Positions 32,823 to 52,279 of a stretch of DNA of 64,000 nt are shown here, piece by piece. Positions within the stretch are counted from its first letter, which is position 1. Each line of letters begins with the position of its first letter. The notes under the pieces are model-generated. The model made no database searches and had not been told where the DNA came from. It saw nothing but the letters and a program-made list of their open reading frames with translations. Location of the stretch: positions 5,056 to 69,055 of the IMG/VR virus record IMGVR_UViG_3300017773_000004; one strand, written 5' to 3'. Origin of the DNA: a virus. A program made the position numbers and the translations under genes.

Positions 32823-34757
32823 ATGAGTTCACCTACCTTTCCCGCAGGTCCGTCTAATGGACAGGCTCACACTGAGTTCGGTATTACTTGGAATTACAAT
32901 TCCAGTTCCGGCCTGTGGGAAAGTGCTATTGGTGAAAATACAACTGTAGTTACTAAAAATAAACTTCAAGAGTACACTTTTGGAGCAACAAACCTTACTG
33001 ATGTTGCCTCTAAATTATCCCATCAACTTTTAAGCATTGAAGAAGTTGATAGTAATATTGTAAATTTAAAACAAGCACTATTAAATTCTGAATTTGAGTT
33101 TCAAAGATTAAATACAGGTATACATAGTCGTGTAGATACTGGGCTTGCCCGTATATTTACACTAGAAAAGCAGCTAGGAGGAGCAGCGGCTCCTGGAGCA
33201 AATGAAAGTACAAGTCTTGCAGCACTCACAACTTCGACAAAAACAAACTTAATTGCTGCAATTAATACTTTAGCCCCGAAAGCGGGGCCTTCTTTTACAA
33301 CTAACGGAAATATTCCTGCGAGTTTTGATCATTTTCCAGACCTACCAGTACAAAGTTCAAAATCTATATTAACCAGGAATACTGTAGCACCTTCAGATAG
33401 CCCTATTTTTACAGGGGCTCCGTCAATGACAGCAAGTCCGGTTTTAACGGATGAAAGTACAAAAATTTCAACAACCTTGTACACAGCACAAAAAATTAGA
33501 ACGGAATTACAAAATACTTCAGTTAGTATTGTTCCTGAAAATGCGAATGTAGTTCTTGATTTAGGTGCGTCTGGAAAAGAATTTAATGATATTTATATTA
33601 AGGGAGATATTCTTCCAAAAACAGATCAACAAAATATAGGAAGCGCTACACAGCCTTTTGGAACAATATTTGCAAATACTGGTAGACTTGCAATCAATAC
33701 TCTGTTTATTGGTGATGACTCAATTTCTGGTAATGCAAATGGAGGTGTAAATCTTCCCGACGGTACTTCAATTGGAGACGCAGAAAATGTAATCTCTAGT
33801 GGAATTTTTTCAACTATACTTGATGAGAAAATCTCAAAAGCTACAGGATACACTAAGTTAAGAGGTACTTTTAGTTCAGCAGGCTCAGTAATATCTGCAA
33901 GAACTCCGGTGTGCTTAGACTCAAACGGCGAATTAGTAGATGTAGTAGGCGGAGATCTAAATTCTTTTATAGGATTTACAGAGGCCCGAATCGAAGGAAA
34001 TGGAAGTGGATTTGTAATTGTACATGGCCCCGTAACAGGTTTTAGTAATTTAACGGCAAATAGTGTTTATCATATAACTACTGGGGGAGTTTTAACAGAA
34101 ACCTCATCAAGCACGACAAAAAAGGTAGGAATAGCAACAAGTACAACAGAGTTATTTTTATTTAGTACACCAATTGATCCATATATACTAAATAAAGATA
34201 AAGTAAGTTTATCAGATTTTTCTATTTCTACACTGGCAGCTAGTTCTAATGGTGGATTGAGCTATAATGCTGCAACAGGAGTGTTTTCTTTTACTCCTCC
34301 AAATTTAGGAATTTTTGCTGAAAAAGCAAGTCCTGCATTAACAGGTACTCCAACAGCACCTACTGCAGGAGTGGGTGATAATCCTTCCACGCAAATTGCT
34401 ACAACAGCATATGTAACAAGTAAAATTGCAGCAACTGCTCCAAGTCAGCACAACGCAAATCTTACAGGAACACCAACTGCTCCAACGGCAGGTACAAGTG
34501 AAGAAAGTACACAAATTGCAACAACCGCATATGTTGCAAATAAAATTGCAGCTACCCCATTAAATACATTATCAGATGTTGTTATAAATAATCCTTTAAA
34601 TGGACATGGAATCGTATATAATTCTACTACATCAAGATTTGAAAATGGACTAGTAGGCGGAGGCGGTGGTGCAGGAATAGACTTTATAGTGGATGGAGGT
34701 ACAGCTACAACAGCTGCAACTTCTATTCAGATAATACTAGACGGGGGCAGTGCATAG
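32823..34757 (+). CDS. tail fibre protein 1
   Basis: N-terminal FPAGPSNG module, SPALTGTPTAPTA...QIATTAYV fibre repeats, C-terminal DGG motifs. Confidence 0.75.
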   Translation: MSSPTFPAGPSNGQAHTEFGITWNYNSSSGLWESAIGENTTVVTKNKLQEYTFGATNLTDVASKLSHQLLSIEEVDSNIVNLKQALLNSEFEFQRLNTGIHSRVDTGLARIFTLEKQLGGAAAPGANESTSLAALTTSTKTNLIAAINTLAPKAGPSFTTNGNIPASFDHFPDLPVQSSKSILTRNTVAPSDSPIFTGAPSMTASPVLTDESTKISTTLYTAQKIRTELQNTSVSIVPENANVVLDLGASGKEFNDIYIKGDILPKTDQQNIGSATQPFGTIFANTGRLAINTLFIGDDSISGNANGGVNLPDGTSIGDAENVISSGIFSTILDEKISKATGYTKLRGTFSSAGSVISARTPVCLDSNGELVDVVGGDLNSFIGFTEARIEGNGSGFVIVHGPVTGFSNLTANSVYHITTGGVLTETSSSTTKKVGIATSTTELFLFSTPIDPYILNKDKVSLSDFSISTLAASSNGGLSYNAATGVFSFTPPNLGIFAEKASPALTGTPTAPTAGVGDNPSTQIATTAYVTSKIAATAPSQHNANLTGTPTAPTAGTSEESTQIATTAYVANKIAATPLNTLSDVVINNPLNGHGIVYNSTTSRFENGLVGGGGGAGIDFIVDGGTATTAATSIQIILDGGSA

Positions 34758-37681
34758 TGGCAATAGCAAGAATACAACTAAGACGAGATACTGCCTCTGC
34801 ATGGACTACTGCAAATACTGTTCTTAATGCGGGCGAGCTCGGCTTAGAAACAGATACTAAAAAGATAAAAGTTGGAGACGGTACAAATAGTTGGCAAAAT
34901 CTAGACTATATTGTGTATGAAAAAGCTTTTTCTGACCTAACGTCTACTCCAACCACTATAGCTGGATATGGCATTACTGACGCATTTGATGGAGCTTTTA
35001 ACAGCTTATCAGGTAAGCCCACAACTGTAGCAGGATATGGTATTAGTGATGCACTTACTGGGGTATCTTTTGCTCAAGTAACAGGCAAACCAACAACTGT
35101 AGCAGGATATGGTATTAGTGATGCTCTAACTTCTGTTACTTTTGGAATAATTCAAAATCGACCAACCACCCTAGCGGGATATGGTATTACCGATGCTTTT
35201 GACGGAGTATTTAGTTCTTTAACAGGTAAGCCAACTACCCTAGCGGGATATGGTATTACCGATGCTTTTGACGGAGTATTTAGTTCTTTAACAGGTAAGC
35301 CAACCACCCTAGCGGGATATGGTATTACAGATGCTTTTGACGGAGTATTTAGTTCTTTAACAGGTAAGCCAACTACTCTTGCTGGGTATGCAATTACAGA
35401 TGCCGCTCCGCTGGCCTCCCCGGCTCTTACAGGAACTCCAACAGCTCCTACCGCGGCAAATGGTACAAACACGACTCAAATTGCTACAACCGCATTTGTT
35501 AATACGGCACTTACTCCGTACGCAGAAATAGATGCAACTGCAAAATTGTACTTTCAAGAAACTGCTCCTACAATACTGGCATTAGATGAAGTATGGCTTG
35601 ATACTAATGCAGGAGCGTTTTATAAAGCTAGTCCAGGCTCTTCAACAGTTCCTCTTGATAGTAGTTTAGTTTCATCTTCTTCAGCAAGTGTAACTATTCC
35701 TGCCGCAGGAGCAACAGATACAAGATTAGAACTATCTGCGGGTACTCCTTTTGGAAGTATAACCTTCAATATTCCTGTATTTCTAGAAGCTTTTTCTTCT
35801 ACAGGCAGTAATCAGCCTACTTTAGGCACTTTAACATATCACGATAATACTACTGCGACTGCAAATACTACAAGTATAACTAGAGCTTCTGGAAATGCTT
35901 TAGATAAGAAAGTAAAAAGTTTTACATACTACTCCGGCGGTATAAGTAATTCAAATGTTTCCCATATGACAATAACAGTTTCTGGGAAACCTGAATGGCA
36001 AGTACAAGAAAGTCATATTCAATCAAAAGTTGATGCAGTAATAGACTCTGCTCCAGGAGCTTTAGATACTTTAAATGAATTAGCTGCTGCTCTTGGGGAC
36101 GATGCAAACTTTTCTACAACATTAACAAATACCCTAGCAACGAAAGCCCCTTTAGCTTCTCCTGCTCTTACAGGAACTCCAACAGCTCCTACTGCTTCAG
36201 CGGGATCAAATACAACTCAAATTGCAACAGCAGCATTTGTAACAGGTGCGATTGCAAGTAAAATTGCACTTACAGATTTAAGTGTAACACAAAACTCTGC
36301 TTCCGGAACAGGAGCATTGTCTTATAATAACTCAACTGGAGTATTTAGCTATACTCCTCCCTCTACAGTAACTTTTGCCAATATTAGTGGTAAACCTACA
36401 ACTGTAGCAGGATACGGTATTGCTGACGCACTCACAACAGGTGCAGATGCAGATATTGGCAGTAATGATTTTATTACAACTGGAAAAGCATATTTTGCAA
36501 ATATGTTTGCCAATACAAACAATCTTCCAAGTGCTACAACATATCATGGCATGTTTGCCCATGTACACGCCACTGGAGCAGGATACTTTGCCCATGGAGG
36601 TAGCTGGGTACGCTTAGCAAACCATAGCGAATTATTTAGTGGATCTTTTACAGCTCTTAGCAATAAACCAACTACTGTAGCAGGCTATGGAATTACTGAT
36701 GCATTTGATGGTGCATATAGTAGTCTTACAGGAAGACCCACTACTTTATCTGGATTTGGTATTACAGATGCTGCACCTTTAGCCTCTCCAACCTTTACAG
36801 GAACTCCTGCAGGTCCAACTGCTACAAGTGGTACAAATACAACACAGCTTGCTACTACAGCATTTGTTCAAGCCGCTATTTCAGGATTTAGTGCTGGTGC
36901 AAATGTATCCGTATCTACTTCTGCTCCAAGTAGTCCAGCAGCAGGAGACTTATGGTTTGATTCAAGTGAGCTAATACTTTATGTATACTATGCTGATGGA
37001 ACTTCCAACCAGTGGGTGCAAACAAACCCAAGCTCTGTACAATCAGGTGGTTTTGATGGTGCATTTAGTAGTCTTACAGGAAAGCCTAATACTATATCTG
37101 GGTATGGGATAACAGATGCTGCGCCTACAAACTCACCAAGTTTCACAGGTACACCAAGTGCTCCGACTGCATCAAGTGGAACAAATACTGGACAGATAGC
37201 AACAACAGCTTTTGTACAGCAAGAAGTATCTTCCGCGGGTGGCTATAATGATGCGTCTGTAAATACTCACTTAAACAGAAGTACTGCGGCAACTGGAGAA
37301 GTACTAAGCTGGAATGGTAGTGATTATGATTGGGTGGCGCAGCCTACAATTCCTGCTCAAGAATTTATTAAGGCATATAGATTTGATGGGACACTATCTA
37401 CGAATACTGGAACAAAAAGACTTTATGTACAAAAAGCATATACTTTAAAAAGTGTTCATGCTTATGTTGATACTGCATCTGCAGGTGCTGCAATAAATAT
37501 TACTATAAATAAAAATGGATCAAGTCTACAGACTTTAAGCATAACAGCAGGAGCTACAGTAGCAAGTGTAACTTCATTAAATCACTCAGTTGCTGCAAAT
37601 AATTATTTAACAATTGATATAACTCAGGTAGGCTCTTCAACAGCGGGCGAAAATTTATACCTAGTGTTTACATTTAACTAA
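34757..37681 (+). CDS. tail fibre protein 2 with Mtd-like N-terminal domain
   Basis: IQLRRDTASAW...LNAGELGLETDT.KIKVGDG (Mtd_N-like), many KPTTxAGYGITDA repeats, DTLNELAAALGDD and TGTPTAPTA repeats. Likely start is GTG 34758 next to the upstream TAG; ORF-track coordinates kept. Confidence 0.85.
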   Translation: MAIARIQLRRDTASAWTTANTVLNAGELGLETDTKKIKVGDGTNSWQNLDYIVYEKAFSDLTSTPTTIAGYGITDAFDGAFNSLSGKPTTVAGYGISDALTGVSFAQVTGKPTTVAGYGISDALTSVTFGIIQNRPTTLAGYGITDAFDGVFSSLTGKPTTLAGYGITDAFDGVFSSLTGKPTTLAGYGITDAFDGVFSSLTGKPTTLAGYAITDAAPLASPALTGTPTAPTAANGTNTTQIATTAFVNTALTPYAEIDATAKLYFQETAPTILALDEVWLDTNAGAFYKASPGSSTVPLDSSLVSSSSASVTIPAAGATDTRLELSAGTPFGSITFNIPVFLEAFSSTGSNQPTLGTLTYHDNTTATANTTSITRASGNALDKKVKSFTYYSGGISNSNVSHMTITVSGKPEWQVQESHIQSKVDAVIDSAPGALDTLNELAAALGDDANFSTTLTNTLATKAPLASPALTGTPTAPTASAGSNTTQIATAAFVTGAIASKIALTDLSVTQNSASGTGALSYNNSTGVFSYTPPSTVTFANISGKPTTVAGYGIADALTTGADADIGSNDFITTGKAYFANMFANTNNLPSATTYHGMFAHVHATGAGYFAHGGSWVRLANHSELFSGSFTALSNKPTTVAGYGITDAFDGAYSSLTGRPTTLSGFGITDAAPLASPTFTGTPAGPTATSGTNTTQLATTAFVQAAISGFSAGANVSVSTSAPSSPAAGDLWFDSSELILYVYYADGTSNQWVQTNPSSVQSGGFDGAFSSLTGKPNTISGYGITDAAPTNSPSFTGTPSAPTASSGTNTGQIATTAFVQQEVSSAGGYNDASVNTHLNRSTAATGEVLSWNGSDYDWVAQPTIPAQEFIKAYRFDGTLSTNTGTKRLYVQKAYTLKSVHAYVDTASAGAAINITINKNGSSLQTLSITAGATVASVTSLNHSVAANNYLTIDITQVGSSTAGENLYLVFTFN
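35162..35404 (+). repeat. 69-bp near-perfect coding tandem repeat, 3.5 copies
   Basis: Units start at 35162, 35231, 35300 and 35369, encoding PTTLAGYGITDAFDGVFSSLTGK. Confidence 0.9.
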
Positions 37682-37692
37682 GGAGAAAATAT

Positions 37693-38946: not shown

Positions 38947-38948
38947 TT

Positions 38949-39272: not shown

Positions 39273-39274
39273 TC

Positions 39275-39532: not shown

Positions 39533-42394
39533 ATGTCAGCATATAATTTTCCAAATAGTCCGAGCAATGGAGATACTGTAAATGTTGCAGGTATTGTTTA
39601 TACCTATGACTCTACAGATAATGCATGGAAAACCGGAGCAGGTCAAAGTCCTGCTATACTAAGTAATGGTACTACTCCTAGCTTGGCTTCTGGAATTACT
39701 GCTGCTGAAATACGTACACTTATTGATGCTTCAGCTGACCCAGTAGACTTATCTTCTGTAGCTCAAAATATTATTCCTGATGCTGATTCGACTCGAGATT
39801 TAGGTACGAGCAGTAAAAAGTTTAGGGATCTTTATCTAAGTGGAAGTAGTTTGCACTTAGGCAGTATAACAATTGAATCAGATGCAACTTCTATAGTTCT
39901 TCCTCAATTAAAGATTGGTACAGGCGCTAACCAAGTAACTCTAAGCGGTTCTGGAGGCGCACTACAGGCAGGAGGAGCTGGAATTACTTTTGCAAGTCTT
40001 TCTGGTAAACCTACAACTATAGCTGGATACGGTATTACTGATGCTCTCACATTAGGAACTTCAGCTACAACTGCACTTGCAGGAAATACTACATTCTCCT
40101 TTGCAAGTCTTACAGGTAGGCCTACTACTATAGCCGGGTATGGTATTACTGACGCTCTCACATTAGGAACTTCAGCTACAACTGCACTCGCTGGCAACAC
40201 TGCTTTATTTAGCGGAGCATTCAGTGCTCTTACAGGTAAACCTACTACTATAGCAGGCTATGGTATTACTGATGCACTTACATTAGGAACTTCGGCTACA
40301 ACTGCACTTGCAGGAAATACTGCTTTATTTAATGGCGCTTATAGCTCTTTAACTGGCATACCTACTACCATAGCACATAAAAATGCAGACATTGATATTG
40401 GTAGTAATGATTTTATTACAACCGGTAAAGTTTTATTTGCAAATATGTATTCAGCGCTTTCTGATTTACCCAGCGCTACAACTTATCACGGCATGTTTGC
40501 TCATGTACATGCTACAGGAGCGGCATACTTTGCACACGGCGGAAACTGGATAGAACTCGCAAACAAAAGTTATGTAGATACTCAAGTCTCTGCTCTCGTA
40601 GACTCTGCTCCTGCAACACTAAATACACTAAATGAGCTTGCAGCAGCACTAAATGATGATGCAAGTTTTTCTACAACAGTTACAAATAGTTTAGCTGCAA
40701 AAGCACCTTTAGCAAGCCCTACTCTTACAGGCACTCCAGCAGCTCCAACCGCAGCAAGCGGTACAAATACTACACAAATAGCAACAACTGCATTTGTAAC
40801 GGCAGCAGTAGCCGGAGCTTCTGGAACATATAATAACGCAGCAGTAGATACTCACTTAAATACAGGCACTGCTTCTACAAATGAAGTATTATCTTGGAAT
40901 GGTAGTGATTATGACTGGGTGGCACAGTCTGGGGGAGGAGGGGGAGCCTCTGTAACTACGTCAGATGCTGCACCAAGTAGCCCAAGTGCAGGAGACTTAT
41001 GGTATAATACAAATGCTGGTGGTTTATTTGTATACTATACTGATGCAAATTCTTCTCAATGGGTGGAAATTGTAGGTAAAACAGGTGCTACAGGTGCTAC
41101 AGGTGCTGCAGGTGCTGCAGGTGCTGCAGGTGCTGCGGGGTCTAGTGCTGCAATAACTCGTTATGCTAATGTTGCAGGCTTTCCAGGAAGTCCTACTGCC
41201 GCTGATTTAGCTTATGCAAATGATACAAATACTTTATACTTATATAATGGCACATCTTGGGAAGTAGTAGCATCTGGAAATGACGAAAGTCCCGTAATTA
41301 CTACTGAACCTCCTACAAGCACACAAACACTATCAAATTCAGGAAGTACTAGCACAGTAACAATGGTAGCACAAGACCCTGAAGGATTTGCTATTAATTA
41401 TGGTATTGCATATAAAACAGCAAATAATGCTTTACCTTCTCAGCTTGCTTCTGCTCCTTCTATTAATCAAAGTACCGGAGTATACACTTTTACACCTAGT
41501 ACTAATTCAGCTCACGCAGGAAGTTTTAAAGCACGATTAAGTGCATCTGATGGAGCAAGAACTACAACTCGTCTAATAGACTTTAGTTTATCTTTCACTG
41601 TATTAGTAGAATACTTAGTTATCGGCGGAGGCGGCGGAGGCGGAGGCGGATCAGCCGCCGGCGGTGGTGGTGGTGCGGGCGGTTATCGTACTGCTACTGG
41701 GTTTGCGTTAACACCCGGTACGGCCTATTCAATTACTGTAGGCGCAGGCGGCGCAGGCACTACAAGTCCTGACAATAATAATGCATCAAATGGAAGCAAC
41801 TCTGTATTTGGAAGTATAACAGCTTTAGGCGGAGGCGGAGGTGCCGGTACGGGCCCCGCTAACCAGTCATATGCTGGTAATGGATTAGTTGGTGGATCCG
41901 GCGGTGGTGGTCGTTACGGTGGTACTGGGGGCGCAGGCACTTCTGGACAAGGTTATGCAGGGGGTGCCTCTACTTCCGCAGGTTCTAGAGGTTCTGGTGG
42001 CGGTGGTGGTGCTAGCGCTGCTGGTGGAGACGGTAATTCAAGTACTCCAGGTACTGGGGGTGCTGGACTGGCTTCTTCCATAACAGGTACTTCTGTAACC
42101 CGTGCAGGAGGGGGTGGAGGTGCTCTTTGGAGTAATGCTGCTTTCACTAATGGCGGAGCTGGTGGCGGTGGAAACGGTGGATCTTCTGCATCGGCAGGAA
42201 CAGCAAATACCGGCGGTGGCGGTGGCGGTAATGGTAGTAGCGTTGCTGGTCAAGCGGGCGGTTCCGGTGTAGTAATTATCGCAGCACAGCAAGCAGCATC
42301 TTCTGTATCAGGAACTTATAGTGTAGATACTAGCGGTAGGTCCGGATGGCATGTTTATACATTTACAGCAGGCACTGGTAGTATAACTTTCTAA
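39533..42394 (+). CDS. fibre/adhesin with cadherin/Ig-like domain and glycine-rich head
   Basis: FPNSPSNG N-module, KPTTIAGYGITD x3, His motif, GDLWY module, collagen-like linker, DPEG...ASDG domain, GGGGGAGG...GGSGVVII C-terminal domain. Confidence 0.8.
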   Translation: MSAYNFPNSPSNGDTVNVAGIVYTYDSTDNAWKTGAGQSPAILSNGTTPSLASGITAAEIRTLIDASADPVDLSSVAQNIIPDADSTRDLGTSSKKFRDLYLSGSSLHLGSITIESDATSIVLPQLKIGTGANQVTLSGSGGALQAGGAGITFASLSGKPTTIAGYGITDALTLGTSATTALAGNTTFSFASLTGRPTTIAGYGITDALTLGTSATTALAGNTALFSGAFSALTGKPTTIAGYGITDALTLGTSATTALAGNTALFNGAYSSLTGIPTTIAHKNADIDIGSNDFITTGKVLFANMYSALSDLPSATTYHGMFAHVHATGAAYFAHGGNWIELANKSYVDTQVSALVDSAPATLNTLNELAAALNDDASFSTTVTNSLAAKAPLASPTLTGTPAAPTAASGTNTTQIATTAFVTAAVAGASGTYNNAAVDTHLNTGTASTNEVLSWNGSDYDWVAQSGGGGGASVTTSDAAPSSPSAGDLWYNTNAGGLFVYYTDANSSQWVEIVGKTGATGATGAAGAAGAAGAAGSSAAITRYANVAGFPGSPTAADLAYANDTNTLYLYNGTSWEVVASGNDESPVITTEPPTSTQTLSNSGSTSTVTMVAQDPEGFAINYGIAYKTANNALPSQLASAPSINQSTGVYTFTPSTNSAHAGSFKARLSASDGARTTTRLIDFSLSFTVLVEYLVIGGGGGGGGGSAAGGGGGAGGYRTATGFALTPGTAYSITVGAGGAGTTSPDNNNASNGSNSVFGSITALGGGGGAGTGPANQSYAGNGLVGGSGGGGRYGGTGGAGTSGQGYAGGASTSAGSRGSGGGGGASAAGGDGNSSTPGTGGAGLASSITGTSVTRAGGGGGALWSNAAFTNGGAGGGGNGGSSASAGTANTGGGGGGNGSSVAGQAGGSGVVIIAAQQAASSVSGTYSVDTSGRSGWHVYTFTAGTGSITF
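41082..41136 (+). repeat. 9-bp coding tandem repeat CAGGTGCT(A/G), about 6 copies (Gly-Ala-Thr/Ala, collagen-like)
   Basis: Seen directly in the sequence. Confidence 0.85.
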
Positions 42395-42404: not shown

Positions 42405-43979
42405 ATGGCAACAGATTTTCCAAATAGCCCCTCAAATGGAGCAACCCATACTTTTGGAGGAAATACTTATACGTATAACTCTACAATGGGGGCATGGACA
42501 GGTCCGGCTGGAGGGTCGGGCGGAGGAGCATCTGTAACTGTATCAGAAACTGCTCCTTCTAGTCCTGCTGAAGGTGATTTATGGTTCGATCCAAGTGTAC
42601 TCAAAACGTTTGTGTATTATAATGATGGAACTGCAAGTCAGTGGGTACAAAGTAATCCTACAGGTAGTGGAAGTGGTGGCAGTGCTGGAGCATCTGTAAC
42701 TGCATCAGATACTGCGCCTTCGTCTCCAAGTGCAGGAGATTTGTGGTATAAATCAGATACAAATGCATTGTATGTATACTATAATGATGGAGACTCTAGC
42801 CAATGGGTAGGTGTATCCGGCCCTGCTGGAGCTGATGGAGCCGCGGGAGCCGCGGGAGCCGCTGCTACTGGTTATGGACAAGTTCCAATTATTTATACTG
42901 AACCTCCTACGACTCATGACTTAAATAGTGATGGTAGCACTAGCACAGTACAAATGCAGGCAGTAGATCCAGAAGGAACTGCGATTACTTATGCGATTGC
43001 ATATGCAAATGCTACAAATGCACGTCCAAATCAACTTGTAGCAGATACAGCTATAAATCAAAGCACCGGTATTTTTACTTTTGATCCTTCTACAAACTCA
43101 ACCCACGCAGGTACTTTTAAAGCACGTTTAAGTGCTTCAGATGGAATTACACACGCTACACGATTTGTTAATTTTACCCTAGCTTTTAATGTTACCGCAG
43201 AACTGCTACTTGTTGCTGGAGGTGGAGGCGGTAATAATGACGCTGGCGGCGGCGCCGGTGGTGGTGGCTACGTCGAAGATTCTTCGTATGTATTTTTAAG
43301 TGGTACTACATATAATATTACAGTAGGAACTGGAGGAGCTGTTGCGACAGCACAAGGTGCAGTTGGATCAAGGGGTGGAAATAGTACTTTTGCCACAGGA
43401 GGTTCTGATATTTATGTAGCTACCGGAGGAGGTGGCGGAGGTGGTGTTGGTAACTTTACTGGTAGTGATTTAAGCACTCAACTTAATGGTGGTTCTGGCG
43501 GAGGTGCAGGTCGTGCTTCAGACGGGCCAGGAATAGCCCTACAAGCTTCATATGGTGGAAAAGGCTTTGGTTTTAATGGCGGAGATGATTATTCGAATGA
43601 AGGCGGTGGCGGTGGAGGCGGTGCTGGCGGAGCAGGTACAGACGGTACCGCTGCTTTAGGTGGTAATGGTGGAGCTGCAAAACAGTCTTCAATTACCGGC
43701 ACAGCAACCTACTATGCAGGAGGAGGGTACGCTGGAGGTTATGATGTATCTTTAGGCTCTTATGGTACTGGCGGTGGAGACAATGTTATTGGTAATGGAG
43801 GCTATGGTGGTATTTGGAGCAACGGCACATATGGTAGTAAAGCAGGAAATAATGGAGTTGTAATTATTGCAGCACAAACAGCAGCAACATCAGTTACTGG
43901 TGCTTATACCTCAAGCACTTCAAGTAGATCAGGGTACACTGTGTACACTTTCACAGGCACAGGTACTATAACTTTCTAA
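42405..43979 (+). CDS. adhesin with two GDLW modules, Ig/cadherin-like domain and glycine-rich head
   Basis: Module motifs as in the neighbouring genes; AAGGAG RBS. Confidence 0.8.
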   Translation: MATDFPNSPSNGATHTFGGNTYTYNSTMGAWTGPAGGSGGGASVTVSETAPSSPAEGDLWFDPSVLKTFVYYNDGTASQWVQSNPTGSGSGGSAGASVTASDTAPSSPSAGDLWYKSDTNALYVYYNDGDSSQWVGVSGPAGADGAAGAAGAAATGYGQVPIIYTEPPTTHDLNSDGSTSTVQMQAVDPEGTAITYAIAYANATNARPNQLVADTAINQSTGIFTFDPSTNSTHAGTFKARLSASDGITHATRFVNFTLAFNVTAELLLVAGGGGGNNDAGGGAGGGGYVEDSSYVFLSGTTYNITVGTGGAVATAQGAVGSRGGNSTFATGGSDIYVATGGGGGGGVGNFTGSDLSTQLNGGSGGGAGRASDGPGIALQASYGGKGFGFNGGDDYSNEGGGGGGGAGGAGTDGTAALGGNGGAAKQSSITGTATYYAGGGYAGGYDVSLGSYGTGGGDNVIGNGGYGGIWSNGTYGSKAGNNGVVIIAAQTAATSVTGAYTSSTSSRSGYTVYTFTGTGTITF

Positions 43980-43989
43980 GGAGTAAAGA

Positions 43990-45327
43990 ATGGCAATCAA
44001 TTTTCCAAATAGCCCATCAAATGGGGATACACATACAGCAGCAGGCCAAACTTTTACCTATGATGGCACTGTATGGAATCCTCAATCAGGTACTCCTGTA
44101 TCTACTGGCACAAGTGCGCCTTCTAGCCCCTTTCCTGGCGATCTTTGGTTTGATACGTCTTCGGGGACTCTTTACTTTTACTATGCTGATGGTTCTTCGA
44201 ATCAGTGGGTTGGTGTAACTGGTCCTACAGGTGCAAATGGAACTAATGGTGCTGATGGTGCTGATGCAACTCCAACAAGTTATACCGCACAAGGAAATCT
44301 TCCAACCTCTGGAAATACTGTAGGAACACTTGCTTGGCTTACAAGCACAAATCAACTTGCGGTAGCACAATCTGCACAGGATTGGAGTATATTTACCAGA
44401 GATGCTACTACAGCTTTTACTGCAACTGGAGGTACAATTACAACTTATACTGGTGATGGTACTAATGGAACAAATGGTACTAGCTATAAAGTGCATACTT
44501 TTACTTCTTCTGGAAACTTTGTAACAACTGGATCAAAAAGTTATGATTATATTGTAGTCGCAGGTGGAGGATCAGGAGGCCCAAGACACTCTGGAGGTGG
44601 CGGTGCCGGGGGATATATCGCACAAACAGGAGTAACGATCGCAGCAGGAACCCATGCAATTGTAATTGGAGCAGGTGGAGCAGGTATCTCATCAGGAACA
44701 GGAACAAGCGGAAATAATGGTAGTAATACAACTTTTAATAGCCATACCGCGATAGGAGGCGGTGGAGGTGGATACTCTAGTTCTGCAGCAGGTAGCGGAG
44801 GTTCCGGGGGCGGAGGATCTAGTTGGAATGCATATACTGGGGGTGCTGGTACATCAGGACAAGGATATGCAGGTCGAGATGGACATTGGACATCTAGTGG
44901 AGATCACAGAGTTTCTGGAGGCGGCGGCGGTGCTGGAGGACAAGGACCCGCACCTACACACAGCCCTCAGCAAGCGGGAGATGGTGGTGTAGGAGTACAA
45001 AACTATATAAATGGAACAGGCCATTACTGGGCTGGTGGAGGCGGTGGGGGTACGTGGAATTCTGGTGGAAGTCGAGGAGGAAATGGGGGTAACGGTGGAG
45101 GCGGCGGTGGAACTCATACGGGTACCGGTACTTTAACTGGAGGAACTGGCGGCTCTGGTTTAAATGCTGGAGGCGCTGGAGGAACAGGAACGACTAACCT
45201 GCCAGGAGCAGGCGGGCAAAATACCGGAGGTGGCTCAGGAGGGGCAGGGCAAGACGTTCATGCAAGCCATGTTGGTGGTTCTCAAAGCGGAGGCTCTGGC
45301 ATTGTAATTATAAGGTATGAGGCATAA
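43990..45327 (+). CDS. adhesin with glycine-rich head
   Basis: FPNSPSNG module, one GDLWFD module, ATGGTITT...YKVHTFTSSG...VVAGGG...GGSGIVIIRY. Confidence 0.8.
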   Translation: MAINFPNSPSNGDTHTAAGQTFTYDGTVWNPQSGTPVSTGTSAPSSPFPGDLWFDTSSGTLYFYYADGSSNQWVGVTGPTGANGTNGADGADATPTSYTAQGNLPTSGNTVGTLAWLTSTNQLAVAQSAQDWSIFTRDATTAFTATGGTITTYTGDGTNGTNGTSYKVHTFTSSGNFVTTGSKSYDYIVVAGGGSGGPRHSGGGGAGGYIAQTGVTIAAGTHAIVIGAGGAGISSGTGTSGNNGSNTTFNSHTAIGGGGGGYSSSAAGSGGSGGGGSSWNAYTGGAGTSGQGYAGRDGHWTSSGDHRVSGGGGGAGGQGPAPTHSPQQAGDGGVGVQNYINGTGHYWAGGGGGGTWNSGGSRGGNGGNGGGGGGTHTGTGTLTGGTGGSGLNAGGAGGTGTTNLPGAGGQNTGGGSGGAGQDVHASHVGGSQSGGSGIVIIRYEA

Positions 45328-45641: not shown

Positions 45642-45644
45642 AGA

Positions 45645-48107
45645 ATGACAGCATTAAATTTTCCAGACAGTCCGAGCAATGGTGATACGTACCAAGGATA
45701 TACGTACAATAGTACAAAAGGCACTTGGGCGAAACCAGCGGATCCTGATGCAAGAACTGCAGTATACGCAAACATTGCAGCACTGCCTACAAGCGGCACT
45801 GCTGGTGATATGGCGTATGTAACTGCTACAAATCGTTTATATATTTGGACAGGCACTGGATGGTACAATATTGCATTAATTAATACAAATCCTACTATTT
45901 CCGGAGTCAGTTCAAGTTATACTCTTGCAATTGATGGTAGTGCAACGACAGTCACAATCACAGCTACAGATCCAGAAGGATTACCAATTACATACAGTAT
46001 CGTTTCTGATACTTCTGGAAATATTGCTACGGTAGCACAAGGTACCGGTGCAAATACAAATGTATTTACAATTACTCCTTCAACAAATACGGCTCATGCA
46101 GGAACTTTTTCGCTTACTTTCCGTGCTTCAGATGGAGTAAATCTTGCATCTTCGGCAGCATCTTTTACGCTTCAATTTAAAGTAGACAATAGTCACTATA
46201 CAACGGGATTATTTACTTCTGTAGGAGCAAATAATGCTACAAATTCTTCTTTTGACGATAAATCAGCGAGCAATCACACACTAACAGTAGCAAATCAAGC
46301 TCATCAAACTACGTTCAGTCCTTATAGGCCTGGAGGATATTCAGTTTACTTTGATGGTAGCGGAGATTATTTAGCCTCAGACAATAATAATATAGGAAAC
46401 TTTGGCACAGGAGATTTTACACTCGAAGGATGGATCTGGGTTCCTGATCGAAGTGCTTTATATACCATACTTGATGGTCGTCCTACAAGCCTTACTTCTG
46501 CAACTGGGTGGTCTGTAGCAATTAATACTTCCGGAGGTATCTATGTTTATAGTGGGGGGCATCACATTACAGGAACTGCAGGAGATGTTACTACTCAAAC
46601 TTGGCATCACTGGGCACTAACTCGATCTTCCGGAGATATGAAACTATTTTTAAATGGTACTCAACAAGGGAGCACAAACTCAACTGCGAGAGACTACACC
46701 GCAAATTTATTCAGAGTAGGAGCAAGTGGTACAGGAGGAGAAGTTTTTAAAGGCTATCAAAGAGATGTTCGAGTAATAAAAGGTACTGCACTTTATACAA
46801 GTAATTTTACTCCTACTACCGAACCTCTTACAGCAGTAACAAATACTACTTTCCTTGGATGTCACTTGCCTTATATTGCCGATGGATCAACGAATGATCA
46901 TACTATCGCTATAAACGGGGATCCATCAACTGAACCTTTTGCTCCCTTTGATCATCAAGAATACTCAGCATCAAATCATGGTGGTTCAATGGCTTTGGAT
47001 GGCACTGGGGACTCAATAAGTGCAGCTGCCAGTGCAGATTTTGGTTTTGGAACAGGAGACTTTACAGTAGAATGGTGGATTAAGTTTAATACTATTTCAA
47101 ACTATCCTACAGTAATTGATATGAGATCTGCAGACAATGATACTCCATTAGCTTTATTTCCTAAAACAAACTTACAAAATCAACTTGGAGTGTATGTAAG
47201 TGGAGGATATATTGCATCGGGAACAAATAGTTTTAAAGCGGGTATTTGGATTCATTATGCAATTTGTAAAACTGGCGGATACCTTAAAGGATATTTTAAT
47301 GGCAAACAAGATTTTTCGATAGCTTGTACAAGAGATTATGGAAGTAGTGAAAGTATAAGAATTGGAGCAGTTTATGGCAATGGAAACTATTTTGTAGACG
47401 GTAATATGGCAGATGTTCGTATTGTAAAAGGTACGGCAGTTTATACATCAGAGTTTACACCTCCAACAGCTCCTCTCCCAGCAGTTACAAATACAAAACT
47501 ACTTGTACAGAGTACAGATGCCGGTATTATTGATAAGTCTCAAACTGCACAATTAGTCGCCCTTATGGGGAATACAAAGTCTTCTACAACTCAAACAAAG
47601 TTTTTGTCAAGTTCTATGTACTTTGATGGTACTGGAGACTACATTAATGCAGAAAACTTTGAGATAGGAAATGTAGGTACAGCGCCTTTTACTTTTGAAG
47701 GGTGGTTTTATCTAACAGCATCTCCTGCAAACTATATTACTATCATGCAGACCCGAGGTAGTAATGCATCTCAAACAGGTTTTGTAATGGCAATAAGTGC
47801 AGCAGATTTTTATATCTACTCCGGAGCATTTATCGGACAGAAAGGCAGTGCAATTTCCTCAAATCAGTGGTATCACTGGGCATATACAAGAGATACATCT
47901 GGAAATCAAAGAGTATTTTTAGATGGAACTCAAACTGGTAGCACTTACACAACTGCGCGAAACTATACAGACGATAAACTTTGGATAGGCGCTAAGTATG
48001 ATGGATCAGAATACTTTACAGGGTACCAAAGCGATATTCGCATCACCAAAGGCTTAGCAAGATATACTTCAAACTTTACAGCGCCGACGGCGGCATTAAA
48101 GGGATAA
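45645..48107 (+). CDS. adhesin with Ig/cadherin-like domain and three LamG/concanavalin-A-like domains
   Basis: Repeated FDGSGDYL...FGTGDFT.E.W...W.H.A..R...LFLNG...D.R..KG.A.YTSNFT.PT. Confidence 0.85.
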   Translation: MTALNFPDSPSNGDTYQGYTYNSTKGTWAKPADPDARTAVYANIAALPTSGTAGDMAYVTATNRLYIWTGTGWYNIALINTNPTISGVSSSYTLAIDGSATTVTITATDPEGLPITYSIVSDTSGNIATVAQGTGANTNVFTITPSTNTAHAGTFSLTFRASDGVNLASSAASFTLQFKVDNSHYTTGLFTSVGANNATNSSFDDKSASNHTLTVANQAHQTTFSPYRPGGYSVYFDGSGDYLASDNNNIGNFGTGDFTLEGWIWVPDRSALYTILDGRPTSLTSATGWSVAINTSGGIYVYSGGHHITGTAGDVTTQTWHHWALTRSSGDMKLFLNGTQQGSTNSTARDYTANLFRVGASGTGGEVFKGYQRDVRVIKGTALYTSNFTPTTEPLTAVTNTTFLGCHLPYIADGSTNDHTIAINGDPSTEPFAPFDHQEYSASNHGGSMALDGTGDSISAAASADFGFGTGDFTVEWWIKFNTISNYPTVIDMRSADNDTPLALFPKTNLQNQLGVYVSGGYIASGTNSFKAGIWIHYAICKTGGYLKGYFNGKQDFSIACTRDYGSSESIRIGAVYGNGNYFVDGNMADVRIVKGTAVYTSEFTPPTAPLPAVTNTKLLVQSTDAGIIDKSQTAQLVALMGNTKSSTTQTKFLSSSMYFDGTGDYINAENFEIGNVGTAPFTFEGWFYLTASPANYITIMQTRGSNASQTGFVMAISAADFYIYSGAFIGQKGSAISSNQWYHWAYTRDTSGNQRVFLDGTQTGSTYTTARNYTDDKLWIGAKYDGSEYFTGYQSDIRITKGLARYTSNFTAPTAALKG

Positions 48108-48111
48108 TACA

Positions 48112-50937
48112 ATGGCAGTAGTAAATTTACCAGATAGTCCAGCCAATGGCAGTACACAAACTGTTGATGGAATTGTTTATACTTACAACTCTAGTAAGGG
48201 GTACTGGACGGCCGCGAGTTCCGGCGGAGGCACAATACAGGTAACTACAAGTGATTCGGCTCCTTCTAGTCCGGCAGATGGTGACCTATGGTATGATACT
48301 GATGATGGAGGTATGTTTGTATACTATGCAGACGGTTCTTCAAATCAATGGGTAGAAGTAGTAGGCTCACAAGGGCCTCAAGGAACCTTAAGTACTAGTG
48401 ATTCAGCTCCTTCTAATCCTTCAGCCGGGGATCTTTGGTATGATACTGATGATGGTGGATTATTTATATACTATTCAGATGGATCTTCAAATCAGTGGGT
48501 AGAAGTAGTTGGTCAAGCAGGGGCTCAAGGTCCCGCAGGTCCATCGGGGTCATCAACAATTGTAGCAAATACGACAGCCTTGCTAGCACTTTCTTCCCCC
48601 TCTGCGGGGGACCAAGCATTTGTAACTGGAAATAACACTTTATATTTCTATAATGGCAGTGGTTGGTATAAAATTGCACTCATCAACACAACTCCTTCTA
48701 TTTCTGGTGTAAATGCATCTTACGCTCTTGCAATTGATGGGTCAGCAACTACAGTCACTATTGTAGCATCTGATCCAGAAGGATTACCAATTACTTACAG
48801 TATTGCGAGTGATACCTCTGGTAATATTGCTACAGTAGCTCAGGGCACTGGAGCGAGTACAAATGTATTTACAATTACGCCTTCCACAAATAGTGCTCAT
48901 GCCGGTACATTTAGTCTTACCTTCCGAGCATCAGACGGCGTAAATTTTGCAACAGCAGCATCAAGCTTTACATTGCAGTTTAATGTACAAAATCAACGAT
49001 ATACAACTGCCTTGATTACTTCAGTGGGTGCAAATAATGCTGTAAATTCTTCGTTTGATGATAAATCCACTTCGGATCATACAATCACAGCAAATGGAGA
49101 TGCTCATCAAACTACATTTAGTCCTTATCGACATGGAGGATATTCAACTTATTTTGATGGCACAACAGATTATTTAAAAGTAACAGACTCAGCCGAACAT
49201 GACTTTGGAACAGGTGATTTCAGTATGGAATTTTTCTGGTGGCCTGAAACGGTAACTGGAAATAGTGGAAACATACATATAATGATTTCTGCTCCAAATA
49301 ATAGTCATAATCAGTTTATCTACCATGAGTCCAACTATTGGTACTACGCTGCCGGGTCTGGAGGTGCTACAGTTATACCCAGCTCTACAGGAGCTGCTAC
49401 TGTAAAGGCATGGAATCATGTAGTTCTTTGCAGATCTGGAACTACAATGAGTATATTTAGTAATGGTAGTCGAACTGCAACAGTGCAGTCAAGTGCAGCA
49501 GTTGATTTTTCTCATGCAACTATTGGTCGATATGATAGTGGAGGCTATGAAGTAGACGGATATATTCGAGATATGAGATGGTTAAAAGGAAGCTCTGCCT
49601 ACGATGCTACACAAACATCTATAACAGTTCCGACCGAGCCTCTTACAGCAGTAACAAACACTACTTTCCTTGCTTGTCACTTACCTTATATTGCTGATGG
49701 TTCTACTACAGGCCATAGTATTGCTGTAAATGGAAATACAAGCACAAAACCATTTGCACCTTATGATGGAGAAGAATATGCAGTAGCAAATCATGGAGGC
49801 TCTCTACATTCTGATGGTAGCGGAGATTATCTGGCAGTTGCAGCAAGCTCTGATTTTGATTTAGGAACATCTGACTTTACTATAGAAGGATGGGTGTACC
49901 CTACAGCTTACGGTAATGCAAACTTTCTTGTAGGACAAAATTATTTTTCAAGTATTGTTCAAATTAATTCTGGCAAACTGCAATTTTATTCGTCTCCAGC
50001 AAGTGCATATATAATTACTGCTGCAACTGATATTCCCCTCAATGCTTGGACTCATTGGGCAGTGGTACGAAATGGAAATGCTTGGGCTATTTATCTAAAT
50101 GGTAAATCAGATGCTACTGCTACCAATGCTGCGGATGCGGGTTTTGATGGTACAAATCCGTTACACATAATGAGATGGAATAACTCTAACGGCACTACCG
50201 TAGGAAATGTAGCAGATCTTCGTTTTGTAAAAGGAACCGCAGTTTATACTTCCAACTTTACACCTCCCACTGCGCCACTCACGGCAGTTACAAATACAAA
50301 ACTGCTTGTGCAGAGCACAGATGCAGGTATTATTGATAAGGCTCAAACAGCAGATGTTGTCCTTCTTGGGGCAGATGCTAAATCTTCTACAACTCAAAAT
50401 AAGTTTTTAACAAGTTCAATGTATTTTGATGGTACAGGAGACTACTTAGCAGCAGATATAGACGGAAAATTTTTTACAAAGCCTTGGACAATAGAAATGT
50501 GGATATGGGCTCCAAACTATACAGGAACAAAAGCGATAGGGCCGTCTTTTGGGGGAGGATCAGGAGCTTGGAATACTACAAATGGTCATCAATGGATTTC
50601 TTATACCTATAATGGCGACTTATGGTTCCAGTATTTTGGCACAAATAATAGCTATAACAATATTAATATAGGAACTGTTCCCCTAACTAATTCTACTTGG
50701 TGTCACTGGGCGTATTGCTGGGACGGCACAACTCTTAGATTCTTTAAAGATGGAACTTTAGAGCACTCAACTACAACTTTTACGCCAAAAGATGTAGCTA
50801 CCACTAATCTTAATCTCGGTAGACATAACAATGATTCAGAGTATAAAGAGGCTTATTATTCTGATGTAAGAATTACCAAAGGCTTAGCAAGATATACTTC
50901 AAACTTTACAGCGCCGACAGCGGCTTTAAAAGGATAA
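48112..50937 (+). CDS. adhesin with two GDLW modules, Ig/cadherin-like domain and three LamG-like domains (paralogue of 45645-48107)
   Basis: Same LamG-like framework motifs and identical C-terminal peptide ITKGLARYTSNFTAPTAALKG. Confidence 0.85.
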   Translation: MAVVNLPDSPANGSTQTVDGIVYTYNSSKGYWTAASSGGGTIQVTTSDSAPSSPADGDLWYDTDDGGMFVYYADGSSNQWVEVVGSQGPQGTLSTSDSAPSNPSAGDLWYDTDDGGLFIYYSDGSSNQWVEVVGQAGAQGPAGPSGSSTIVANTTALLALSSPSAGDQAFVTGNNTLYFYNGSGWYKIALINTTPSISGVNASYALAIDGSATTVTIVASDPEGLPITYSIASDTSGNIATVAQGTGASTNVFTITPSTNSAHAGTFSLTFRASDGVNFATAASSFTLQFNVQNQRYTTALITSVGANNAVNSSFDDKSTSDHTITANGDAHQTTFSPYRHGGYSTYFDGTTDYLKVTDSAEHDFGTGDFSMEFFWWPETVTGNSGNIHIMISAPNNSHNQFIYHESNYWYYAAGSGGATVIPSSTGAATVKAWNHVVLCRSGTTMSIFSNGSRTATVQSSAAVDFSHATIGRYDSGGYEVDGYIRDMRWLKGSSAYDATQTSITVPTEPLTAVTNTTFLACHLPYIADGSTTGHSIAVNGNTSTKPFAPYDGEEYAVANHGGSLHSDGSGDYLAVAASSDFDLGTSDFTIEGWVYPTAYGNANFLVGQNYFSSIVQINSGKLQFYSSPASAYIITAATDIPLNAWTHWAVVRNGNAWAIYLNGKSDATATNAADAGFDGTNPLHIMRWNNSNGTTVGNVADLRFVKGTAVYTSNFTPPTAPLTAVTNTKLLVQSTDAGIIDKAQTADVVLLGADAKSSTTQNKFLTSSMYFDGTGDYLAADIDGKFFTKPWTIEMWIWAPNYTGTKAIGPSFGGGSGAWNTTNGHQWISYTYNGDLWFQYFGTNNSYNNINIGTVPLTNSTWCHWAYCWDGTTLRFFKDGTLEHSTTTFTPKDVATTNLNLGRHNNDSEYKEAYYSDVRITKGLARYTSNFTAPTAALKG

Positions 50938-50941
50938 AATA

Positions 50942-52279
50942 ATGGCAACTAACTTTCCAGATAGTCCGTCCAACGGCGCCACACATACGTTTGGAGGGAC
51001 TACTTATACTTACAATTCTACAAAAGGTGTGTGGACAGCGCCTTCAGGAGGCAGCTTTACAGGGCTTTCTGATACTCCTTCTAGTCTTAGCGGACAAGGA
51101 GGAAAAACATTAAAAGTAAACTCTGCCGGAAATGCCGTCGAGTTTGCTAGTGTAGCTGCAGGGGACGGACAATCTCCGATTGTCTATACTGAACCTTCTG
51201 CAACTCATGATTTAAACAGTGATGGCAGTACTAGCACAGTGCAAATGCAGGCAGTAGACCCAGAAGGAACTGCTATAACTTATGCGATAGCATATGCGAA
51301 TGCCACGAATGCACGTCCAAATCAACTTGCAGCAGATACCGCTATTAATCAAAGCACTGGTACTTTTACCTTTGATCCTTCTACAACTAGTGGACATGCA
51401 GGCAGTTTTAAAGCAAGACTAAGTGCCTCAGATGGCATTTCAAGTGCTAGTCGTTTTGTAAACTTTAATCTTAGCTTCAATCCAGATATTACATATTTAA
51501 TTGTAGCAGGCGGTGGTGGTGGAGGTACACAGTCCGGTGGTGGTGGAGGTGCTGGAGGACTTCTTACTGGAACTAGTACTCTTGCTATCGGAACAACGTA
51601 CACAGTTACAGTTGGAGCAGGAGGTAATGGCTCTGCAACAGGTCCAGGAGCTGCACAAGATGGTGGAAATAGTGTGCTCTCTGGTAGTGGATTTACTACT
51701 CTTACTGCGATCGGTGGTGGTAAAGGAGGTATCTATAATGGTGGTTCAGGAGGCAACGGAGGTTCCGGTGGCGGGGGCGCTGTAAACAACGGTGCGGCAG
51801 GCACAGGAACATCAGGTCAAGGAAATGCAGGTGCCTCGGGCGGAGTAGATAATGGTAGTGCTACTGACTTCGGAGGAGGCGGTGGAGGTGCTGGTGAAGC
51901 CGGAAACACTGATGGGCCCGGACATGGTGGCGATGGTTTACAGTCAAGTATAACAGGAACGGCTACTTACTATGCTGGTGGTGGTGCTGGTGCTCACCAC
52001 CCTGCAAGTCAGTCTCCTGCTAGTGGAGGCCAAGGTGGTGGTGGTGCTGGAGTAAACTCATCCACGAATAGTGGTAACGGCTATCCTGGTACCGCAAATA
52101 CTGGAGGCGGTGGTGGTACTGGCGCAGAGCACAATAATACTGGAGGCGCAGGAGGTTCAGGAGTAGTAATTATTAGAACTACTTCAACAGCTGCTTCAAG
52201 TACTGGATCTCCCACTCTAACTACCGACGGATCTTTTAATGTATATAAATTTACTGGGTCTGGTAGTATAACATTCTAA
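50942..52279 (+). CDS. adhesin with Ig/cadherin-like domain and glycine-rich head (paralogue of 42405-43979)
   Basis: FPDSPSNG module, nearly identical THDLNSDGSTSTVQMQAVDPEG domain, Gly-rich C-terminus ending GSITF. Confidence 0.8.
   Translation: MATNFPDSPSNGATHTFGGTTYTYNSTKGVWTAPSGGSFTGLSDTPSSLSGQGGKTLKVNSAGNAVEFASVAAGDGQSPIVYTEPSATHDLNSDGSTSTVQMQAVDPEGTAITYAIAYANATNARPNQLAADTAINQSTGTFTFDPSTTSGHAGSFKARLSASDGISSASRFVNFNLSFNPDITYLIVAGGGGGGTQSGGGGGAGGLLTGTSTLAIGTTYTVTVGAGGNGSATGPGAAQDGGNSVLSGSGFTTLTAIGGGKGGIYNGGSGGNGGSGGGGAVNNGAAGTGTSGQGNAGASGGVDNGSATDFGGGGGGAGEAGNTDGPGHGGDGLQSSITGTATYYAGGGAGAHHPASQSPASGGQGGGGAGVNSSTNSGNGYPGTANTGGGGGTGAEHNNTGGAGGSGVVIIRTTSTAASSTGSPTLTTDGSFNVYKFTGSGSITF

Follow-up and report, generated by a model that had tools for sequence, protein, structure and literature searches.

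A family of small paralogous modules in the tail-fibre array of a T5-related marine phage: a candidate plug-and-socket connector between receptor-binding proteins

We analyzed a window of 64,000 nucleotides (positions 5,056 to 69,055 of the IMG/VR virus record IMGVR_UViG_3300017773_000004), which belongs to the 69,055-bp record of a T5-related marine siphophage; coordinates are those of the window, and genes are named by their first position. Between 32823 and 52279 lies an array of twelve plus-strand genes separated by -1 to 11 nt, eight of which encode large fibre-like proteins. All eight fibre frames are open, run in a single orientation and are placed behind the tail genes. A preliminary description of the array, made from the sequence alone, had proposed that it encodes a tree of receptor-binding proteins (RBPs) in which a short N-terminal module, A, plugs into an internal module, B, of another fibre. 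Here we report that A, B and a further module, C, belong to one family, and we weigh the comparative evidence that A may dock on B.

Hidden Markov models (HMMs) were made from the window's own module copies and used to search all six reading frames of the complete 69,055-bp genome. In agreement with the preliminary description, seven proteins begin with A (57.8-74.3 bits, each copy at the first codons of its gene), and seven copies of B (79.0-86.7 bits) lie in the genes named there and none in genes 45645 and 50942. Module C has four copies (67.8-86.5 bits). Beyond the cluster neither A nor B has a match, the best score outside the copies being 12.4 bits; the best scores of the C model outside its own copies (24.0 and 13.7 bits) land on B copies and are cross-hits between related modules. 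The other elements described for the array are also present: a collagen-like linker, K, in four runs of 5-8 Gly-X-Y triplets, each right after the last B of its protein; five copies of an immunoglobulin/cadherin-like module, D (144-183 bits); and heads that Pfam assigns to Gly_rich_2 (E; PF21722, cut-off 24.3 bits) or, in three stretches, to Laminin_G_3 (F; PF13385, cut-off 27.6 bits), every match lying at or above its cut-off. The six architectures listed for the A proteins are correct (Table 1). Gene 34757 encodes the sole B-bearing protein of the cluster that lacks A, and its residues 6-43 match the Pfam family Mtd_N (PF18454) with 53.2 bits, above the gathering score of 26.3.

Modules A, B and C align in one register, P-x-x-P-x-x-G-D ... 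Y-x-Y ... W. Residues P7, P10, N12, G13, Y25 and W32 of A (gene 39533 numbering) are invariant, as is the G-D-L-W motif of B. With the window copies alone, hhalign relates B to C clearly (94%) and A to B and to C weakly (E about 0.002). With profiles of 77, 77 and 50 sequences (A, B and C, respectively) from related loci, the values are 77% for A and B (E 2e-5), 87% for A and C (E 4e-6) and 92% for B and C (E 6e-7). On the strength of these enlarged profiles, one three-stranded beta-meander module of ~35-45 residues underlies all three, with A, B and C as its subfamilies. The earlier picture of A and B as a 'different' plug and socket is not supported, as the two are homologous to each other and to C. 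A hairpin-like motif, '(E)VLSWNGSDYDWVAQ', may be a further member of this family; it occurs at residues ~820-850 of the protein of gene 34757 (~60 residues after B), at residues ~440-470 of that of gene 39533 (before B), and ahead of the first B of a B group in many related proteins.

An AlphaFold2 (AF2) monomer model of the A-B-K-C stalk of gene 43990, built with 29 sequences (predicted local distance difference test score, pLDDT, 77.3; predicted template modelling score, pTM, 0.45), folds A, B and C each into an antiparallel meander of three strands, with K unstructured. When the PDB was searched by sequence with the whole proteins and with A, B, C and A-C profiles, nothing significant came up for A or B, and Foldseek found no PDB match to the stalk model at E<=0.001. 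We also ran VIA-align fold searches; all Z values given here are below 8, a range in which the tool warns that a match may be generic. In these searches B resembles residues 583-623 of CBA120 TSP3 (Z 5.3, root-mean-square deviation (rmsd) 1.4 over 39 residues). Module C resembles the trimerisation domains of collagen XV (3n3f_B, Z 5.1, 49 of 53 residues) and collagen XVIII (9bnb_A, Z 4.3, 54 of 57 residues), as well as residues 5-49 of Mtd (1yu0_A, Z 3.8). Further weak local fold matches to CBA120 TSP3 and TSP4 lie outside or below significance. A local match of A to phiKZ gp184 over 34 residues was dropped, gp184 being described as an inner-capsid protein (PMC11297242). A match of B to PHROG 3304 ('L-shaped tail fiber protein assembly', profile positions 126-169) was likewise not used, the nature of that family not being established.

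Profile comparisons point to the same relatives of C. The stalk profile matches the collagen XVIII trimerisation domain of 8w4f_D with an E of 5.8e-5, a score to which the Gly/Ser-rich linkers may add. Mtd_N and C align with an hhalign probability of 81%, and Pfam Mtd_N matches 2 of 50 C members at E about 0.04. Pfam Collagen_trimer (PF20010) matches 3 of 50 C copies and 2 of 19 compact A-C N-termini at E 0.03-0.05, under its cut-off. What this analysis adds is that A, B and C form one family, and that C resembles the N-terminal domain of Mtd and the trimerisation domains of collagens XV and XVIII. The arrangement of the linkers is regular as well: within the window the K run always comes after B (4/4) and is then followed by C in three of four cases, and in related loci at least four Gly-X-Y triplets follow 83 of 206 last-B modules and precede 44 of 133 C modules. 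Because B and C flank a collagen-like helix, which needs three chains in register, they are probably trimerisation knobs that set this register.

Table 1. Coordinates of the fibre genes, their modules and two upstream genes of the tail region.
Feature	Position	Strand	Remarks
Central-fibre/hub-like (J-like) protein, 2838 aa	18938..27454	+	phrog_31 'central tail fiber J', E 3e-22
110-aa protein	27970..28302	+	position would suit a collar/adaptor (candidate)
Gene 32823, 644 aa	32823..34757	+	A, helical/coiled stretch, fibre repeats; without B; PHROG tail-fibre families
Gene 34757, 974 aa	34757..37681	+	GTG start; Mtd_N, long fibre repeats, one B, C-terminal head; 41 PHROG fibre families
Gene 39533, 953 aa	39533..42394	+	A-fibre-B-K-C-D-Gly_rich_2
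Gene 42405, 524 aa	42405..43979	+	A-B-B-K-D-Gly_rich_2
Gene 43990, 445 aa	43990..45327	+	A-B-K-C-Gly_rich_2; residues 1-145 modelled
Gene 45645, 820 aa	45645..48107	+	A-C-D and three Laminin_G_3
Gene 48112, 941 aa	48112..50937	+	A-B-B-K-C-D and three Laminin_G_3
Gene 50942, 445 aa	50942..52279	+	A-D-Gly_rich_2
Module A copy 1, gene 32823	32823..32942	+	66.9 bits
Module A copy 2, gene 39533	39533..39649	+	70.5 bits
Module A copy 3, gene 42405	42405..42521	+	68.4 bits
Module A copy 4, gene 43990	43990..44097	+	64.1 bits; model strands 14-17, 20-24, 29-31
Module A copy 5, gene 45645	45645..45749	+	57.8 bits
Module A copy 6, gene 48112	48112..48228	+	68.4 bits
Module A copy 7, gene 50942	50942..51055	+	74.3 bits
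Module B, gene 34757	36908..37033	+	81.3 bits
Module B, gene 39533	40955..41083	+	83.8 bits
Module B first copy, gene 42405	42537..42662	+	80.1 bits
Module B second copy, gene 42405	42699..42827	+	79.6 bits
Module B, gene 43990	44101..44229	+	79.0 bits; model strands 52-55, 60-66, 71-75
Module B first copy, gene 48112	48244..48372	+	86.7 bits
Module B second copy, gene 48112	48391..48519	+	84.9 bits
Module C, gene 39533	41150..41287	+	82.9 bits
Module C, gene 43990	44269..44394	+	67.8 bits; model region 94-145 used for the collagen XV match
Module C, gene 45645	45753..45890	+	86.5 bits
Module C, gene 48112	48550..48693	+	76.9 bits
Linker K, gene 39533	41075..41146	+	8 triplets; residues 515-538
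Linker K, gene 42405	42810..42863	+	6 triplets; residues 136-153
Linker K, gene 43990	44212..44265	+	6 triplets; residues 75-92; pLDDT <50 in the monomer model
Linker K, gene 48112	48511..48555	+	5 triplets; residues 134-148
Module D, gene 39533	41285..41602	+	172.2 bits
Module D, gene 42405	42879..43193	+	183.0 bits; weak cadherin match 7tni, E 0.026
Module D, gene 45645	45873..46187	+	144.2 bits
Module D, gene 48112	48676..48990	+	146.7 bits
Module D, gene 50942	51170..51487	+	178.3 bits
Gly_rich_2 head (E), gene 39533	41606..42286	+	PF21722 84.7 bits; residues 692-918
Gly_rich_2 head (E), gene 42405	43194..43874	+	PF21722 59.6 bits; residues 264-490
Gly_rich_2 head (E), gene 43990	44506..45159	+	PF21722 41.8 bits; residues 173-390
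Gly_rich_2 head (E), gene 50942	51485..52177	+	PF21722 68.9 bits; residues 182-412
Three Laminin_G_3 stretches (F), gene 45645	46197..48104	+	limits approximate; PF13385 153.6 bits
Three Laminin_G_3 stretches (F), gene 48112	49000..50934	+	limits approximate; PF13385 129.5 bits

The modules are widespread and follow a simple grammar. Pattern scans of IMG/VR confirmed A in 228 of 435 candidates and B in at least 508 of at least 615, and the A profile matched 9,722 cluster representatives (E<=0.001) among 1.84 billion proteins. Among the best 150 of these 9,722 hits, 145 begin at residues 1-4 and one at residue 14, while four are internal tandem arrays. Across 149 loci, 218 of 219 unique A copies begin no more than 41 residues from the upstream stop, and the order within a protein is nearly always A, B (0-3 copies), C. 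The A proteins of these loci comprise A (78), AC (45), ABC (41), AB (29), ABB (12), ABBC (8), ABBB (5) and ABBBC (1); reversed orders were seen only as CB (two cases) and CCB (one), both in proteins without A. Fibres that carry B without A have varied N-termini, some of them Mtd_N-like, and B without A also forms arrays that reach seven copies. Two proteins, P0002 (836 aa) and P0001 (3352 aa), carry 11 and 15 tandem copies, respectively, of a module intermediate between A and B, so that a module of this type can build a whole repetitive fibre. Minimal two-gene loci include L143, L146, L112 and L044. In L143 and L112, the gene after the A protein starts with another related motif, 'TRPSNPPVGTIIYQTDTNEYLKYV', which may resemble a motif found N-terminally in many minor tail proteins of actinophages.

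A first line of evidence on docking comes from module counts. Whole-record counts were available for ten IMG/VR records, just two of which are at least 90% complete, and counting was therefore moved to loci with module-free flanks: 26 non-redundant closed clusters with at least 2.5 kb of such flanks. Both A and B are present in 22 of the 26, across lineages with different neighbour genes. The number of A proteins equals that of B modules in 16 of the 26 clusters (17 of 27 with the window) and differs by at most one in 24. When the module proteins were shuffled among clusters, 6.4 clusters on average were equal (standard deviation 2.2), and none of 20,000 shuffles reached 17 of 27, phylogeny not being corrected for. 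Broader HMMs gave 15 balanced clusters out of 25, a value that none of 5,000 shuffles reached, and 14 of 24 lineages are balanced when relatives are collapsed. In whole records, A and strong B modules number seven and seven in G001 (97% complete), eight and eight in G003 (100% complete), and seven and seven in the window.

Gene order and covariation provide two further lines. Recurrent orders are [B][A], [B][AB][A], [BC][ABC][AC] and [BB][A][A], and 43 of 109 B-only proteins have an A protein directly next downstream. A modules resemble each other more closely the more alike the final B modules of their upstream genes are (r 0.33, 87 adjacent pairs; reached in 0 of 500 Mantel permutations, phylogeny not corrected). 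In the 36 cases where the A protein also has a B of its own, r is 0.49 for the upstream B and 0.20-0.23 for the B in cis, which lies 10-15 residues off. The correlation of A with other B modules of the locus is 0.14, and with the upstream head, which lies between A and the upstream B on the DNA, 0.07. No other protein family near the A/B genes is common to more than 7 of 21 lineages; a common non-fibre partner of A is thus not visible near these genes.

Order, counts and covariation agree better with docking of A on the B of the upstream fibre than with the alternatives weighed below. Judged by these sequence comparisons, it is quite possible, if still short of probable, that the A of one fibre docks on the B of another. 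More tentative is the complete picture, in which A and B would form a paralogous plug and socket, the A knob seating on an internal B of the fibre encoded just upstream; a root anchored by Mtd_N would bear a daisy-chained, branching bouquet of seven heads; and the pair, not depending on the baseplate and having no relationship to T4 gp10-like adaptors, would be a portable means of adding heads in marine myo-, sipho- and podo-like phages.

Under this model, the cluster would encode eight trimeric tail fibres or RBPs made by the shuffling of a few modules. Modules B and C would trimerise and thereby fix the register of the three chains, and A would be the common attachment module through which seven heads (four Gly-rich, two triple-LamG and one fibre) are mounted alike. 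The most probable site for A would be a trimeric B knob on another fibre, in most cases the one encoded just upstream. The Mtd_N-anchored fibre 34757 would form the root, proteins with both A and B would extend the chain, double-B proteins would allow it to branch, and the B-less products of genes 32823, 45645 and 50942 would terminate it. Since A and B are paralogous, the contact between them may mimic the packing between neighbouring B modules in tandem arrays.

The proposed tree thus gains indirect backing from co-occurrence, order, counts and covariation, and several observations weigh against it. Arrays of four to seven B modules have zero to two A proteins nearby (L100, L130, L092, L052 and L082). 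In complete cyanomyovirus genomes A and B number 3:10, 10:15, 2:2 and 3:7, so that three of four are unbalanced (the 10 A and 15 B matches are those of S-N03). The co-occurrence that the preliminary description had asked for therefore holds in most closed clusters and breaks down in these arrays and genomes. Internal tandem arrays of A-like modules are found in 4 of the best 150 hits, one of them being the 11 copies of P0002. A protein that has a single A and a single B leaves the balance unchanged, so that the counts would stay equal under tandem duplication even if nothing bound. Both the permutation test and the correlations ignore phylogeny, and the bootstrap interval for the difference between trans and cis correlations runs from -0.002 to 0.57 (zero or less in 2.8% of resamples). 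The model also gives no account of how an internal B trimer would accommodate a trimeric A. Finally, the preliminary description had named a role of A, B and C as mere knobs along separate fibres as an outcome that would speak against branching; the knob part of this finds support in the collagen-like helix between B and C and in the resemblance of C to trimerisation domains, and counts against the proposal to that extent, although such a role leaves room for docking.

The strongest competing explanation, which we still consider rather unlikely, is that the fibres are separate and unbranched: A would anchor each trimer to a part of the baseplate (the C-terminal part of the 2838-aa hub-like protein, a collar, or one of the products encoded at 27466-30743), and the role of B and C as knobs would be structural only. 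With seven proteins, either many sites would be filled or a few would be contested, giving mixed virions. Fibre anchors usually lie at the N-terminus, as A does, and B and C resemble trimerisation units. Precedents exist both in T5, whose side fibre is described as anchored by ~50 N-terminal residues in the p132 collar (PMC10038345), and in RBPs with a DUF2793 domain, for which the described docking site is the hub in JBD30 and the megatron protein in RcGTA (PMC11445458, PMC7296036). The A genes lie downstream of the J-like gene, with four genes between, which is the position that a preprint gives for DUF2793 genes, these following the central fibre gene (bioRxiv 10.1101/150227). DUF2793 itself (PF10983) matches A and C of gene 45645 weakly (17.3 bits, E 0.0045), and at E<=0.1 it matches 5 of 19 compact A-C N-termini and 5 of 50 C modules, but no copy reaches the Pfam cut-off of 27 bits. 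In the fold search, A and B together (model residues 7-80) resemble residues 10-90 of the JBD30 baseplate chain 8rk3_a (Z 4.7, rmsd 4.7 over 61 residues), a weak match that, in terms of the model, would fit an A that packs on its own B and docks on the hub, and so also bears against docking between fibres. Other fold neighbours (vB_ApiP_P1, CBA120 and T7) are among those listed for the JBD30 thigh domain (PMC11445458). A fixed baseplate partner has to contend with the variety of contexts, however: A proteins are found in myovirus, siphovirus and apparently podovirus-like settings that share a non-fibre neighbour in 7 of 21 lineages at most, so such a partner would need to have been reinvented repeatedly. 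Anchoring to the baseplate also leaves unexplained both the balance of the counts and why A tracks the upstream B over its own, and seven different fibres at one kind of site have no precedent that we can cite.

In a further alternative A has no docking role at all: A, B and C would be conserved only as caps that nucleate folding and trimerisation and as homologous arms for the swapping of head cassettes, the fibres being attached by other, unrecognised parts. Homologous modules do form long tandem arrays, Gly-rich linkers flank the modules, and D, Gly_rich_2 and LamG heads recur in varied combinations, as cassette shuffling would produce; unequal crossing-over between conserved modules would presumably keep A and B counts equal without selection. 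We nevertheless hold this to be distinctly unlikely. Under plain linkage A would be expected to covary with the B in its own protein and with the upstream head, yet r is lowest for these two (0.20-0.23 and 0.07, compared with 0.33-0.49 for the upstream B), and this opposite ranking counts against recombination arms as the explanation. The strict start of A at residues 1-4 would be needless for a recombination arm, and the seven fibres would still require an anchor, whereas the genome HMM scan found no other element shared by them. It is highly improbable that the array includes genes with no part in the virion, for example decoys, secreted adhesins or decaying duplicates, and that the number of heads is overstated: the record is from an uncultured virus, but eight open frames are tightly packed in one orientation behind the tail genes, and relatives retain arrays of five to eight A proteins.

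Known systems offer partial parallels to docking of A on B. Several RBPs per virion are found in CBA120, G7C and phiK64-1, where secondary RBPs are joined to the primary one via conserved N-terminal parts and branching uses T4 gp10-like domains. The candidate modules described here differ in being ~40 residues long and mutually homologous, and no T4 gp10-like Pfam family was among the matches of 17 scanned proteins at E<=0.01. The multiplexin domain of collagens XV and XVIII and the N-terminus of Mtd share with C that they are small beta-rich trimerising units, and C directly follows a Gly-X-Y run in three of the window's four K-bearing proteins, just as the multiplexin domain adjoins a triple helix. 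We know of no docking role for multiplexin or Mtd N-terminal domains.

The preliminary description had named T4 gp10-like domains as the established route of branching, but other routes are known as well. In DT57C, a T5-like phage and thus of a virion type related to that of the window phage, an internal region of LtfA has been inferred to be the docking site of the first 45 residues of LtfB (PMC4728585, PMC10713586). LtfA-LtfB of DT57C and DT571-2, as well as gp14-gp15 of phiEco32, share with the proposed system a second fibre whose attachment is ascribed to a very short stretch at its N-terminus. With two fibres, DT57C has a single branch, whereas the window has seven plug-bearing proteins and seven candidate sockets, with plug and socket paralogous. 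At the level of BLAST, tblastn searches with the protein of gene 50942 and with the A-B-B-K-C stalk hit no T5-like record among 50,697 phage records, and thus no likeness to LtfA/LtfB or gp14/gp15. The DUF2793 RBPs (JBD30 gp54, DMS3 gp49 and RcGTA Rcc00171) have in common with the A proteins a conserved N-terminus and variable C-terminal heads, but those phages carry one such protein and the window phage seven. The JBD30 thigh domain, moreover, is described as a central helical bundle with peripheral beta-sheets that takes up the C-terminus of the hub (PMC11445458), whereas the model of gene 43990 has no helix in residues 1-80, which cover A and B.

The modules also occur in cyanophages, S-N03 and S-B68 of Synechococcus being two cultured carriers. 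The stalk search hit 45 of the 50,697 phage records, 38 of which are Synechococcus or Prochlorococcus myoviruses; the protein of gene 50942 had a single match, a marine virus. T4-like cyanophages (Kyanoviridae) carry the same A and B modules in tail-fibre or 'virion structural' proteins. They differ from the window phage in being myoviruses, with tandem arrays of B in proteins of 1,689-3,110 aa and unbalanced numbers of A and B. Their records name the module proteins only as 'tail fiber protein', 'structural protein' and the like and give no specific function for the modules.

The surrounding genome is that of a siphovirus. Its large terminase shares 51% identity with the enzymes of T5-like phages, among them Yersinia phiR2-01 and Vibrio T5-like phages. 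No close relative was found among the 50,697 phage records, and megablast with 9.6 kb of the cluster gave no match. The structural block on the plus strand contains the large terminase, portal, a protease/capsid fusion, tail tube, chaperones, a 1585-aa tape measure, a distal tail protein and the 2838-aa central-fibre/hub-like protein. An open reading frame (ORF) of 669 aa at 3865-5874, whose first ~290 residues match phrog_80 (head maturation protease), phrog_617 and phrog_2263 (major head), may be a fused or mis-clustered capsid gene. The hub-like protein has a lambda J-like centre (phrog_31, residues 1480-1669) between very long flanks and far exceeds T5 pb3 plus pb4 in size; its match to Pfam Phage-tail_3 (18.9 bits) is under the cut-off of 23. 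It might carry several docking or binding domains and is a candidate alternative docking partner for A. The product of gene 27970 has no sequence match in Pfam, PHROG or the PDB, and a p132/LtfC-like collar function for it could not be shown, the PDB search being without a match. Right after the fibre array, genes for the small and large subunits of ribonucleotide reductase and an exonuclease occupy the minus strand (52832-56398), and with this strand switch the structural block ends.

Within the array, the GTG start of gene 34757 takes in the last base of the stop of gene 32823 (34754-34760), a 1-base overlap between different frames. Genes 34757 and 39533 contain many tandem copies of a ~19-residue repeat, 'GKPTT(I/L/V)AGYGITDA', and because of this repeat a 106-aa minus-strand ORF in gene 34757 (35152-35472) is an artefact. 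Three genes at 37693-39523 (417, 107 and 82 aa) lie between the B-only fibre 34757 and the next A protein. None of their products matched a known family, the sole sub-threshold Pfam match having an E of 0.0056; the 107-aa protein has three internal repeats of ~30 residues ('TRLDVQD...'). A 103-aa protein encoded at 45330-45641, which may act as a chaperone of fibres, belongs to phrog_7759, and its relatives adjoin fibre genes in 4 of 21 lineages (L032, L070, L094 and the window).

Phages with several RBPs are natural models for broad host range and its engineering. If docking of A on B is true, this pair of ~40-residue modules would be the smallest known fibre-to-fibre connector, and a widespread one, considering the 9,722 protein clusters matched by the A profile, including those of cyanophages that control marine primary producers. 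Even without docking, A, B and C define an unnamed and very common module family of marine phage fibres that is linked to Mtd_N and to multiplexin-type collagen trimerisation domains. The grammar A-(B)n-(K)-(C)-head could improve the annotation of proteins that are now labelled 'hypothetical' or 'structural'.

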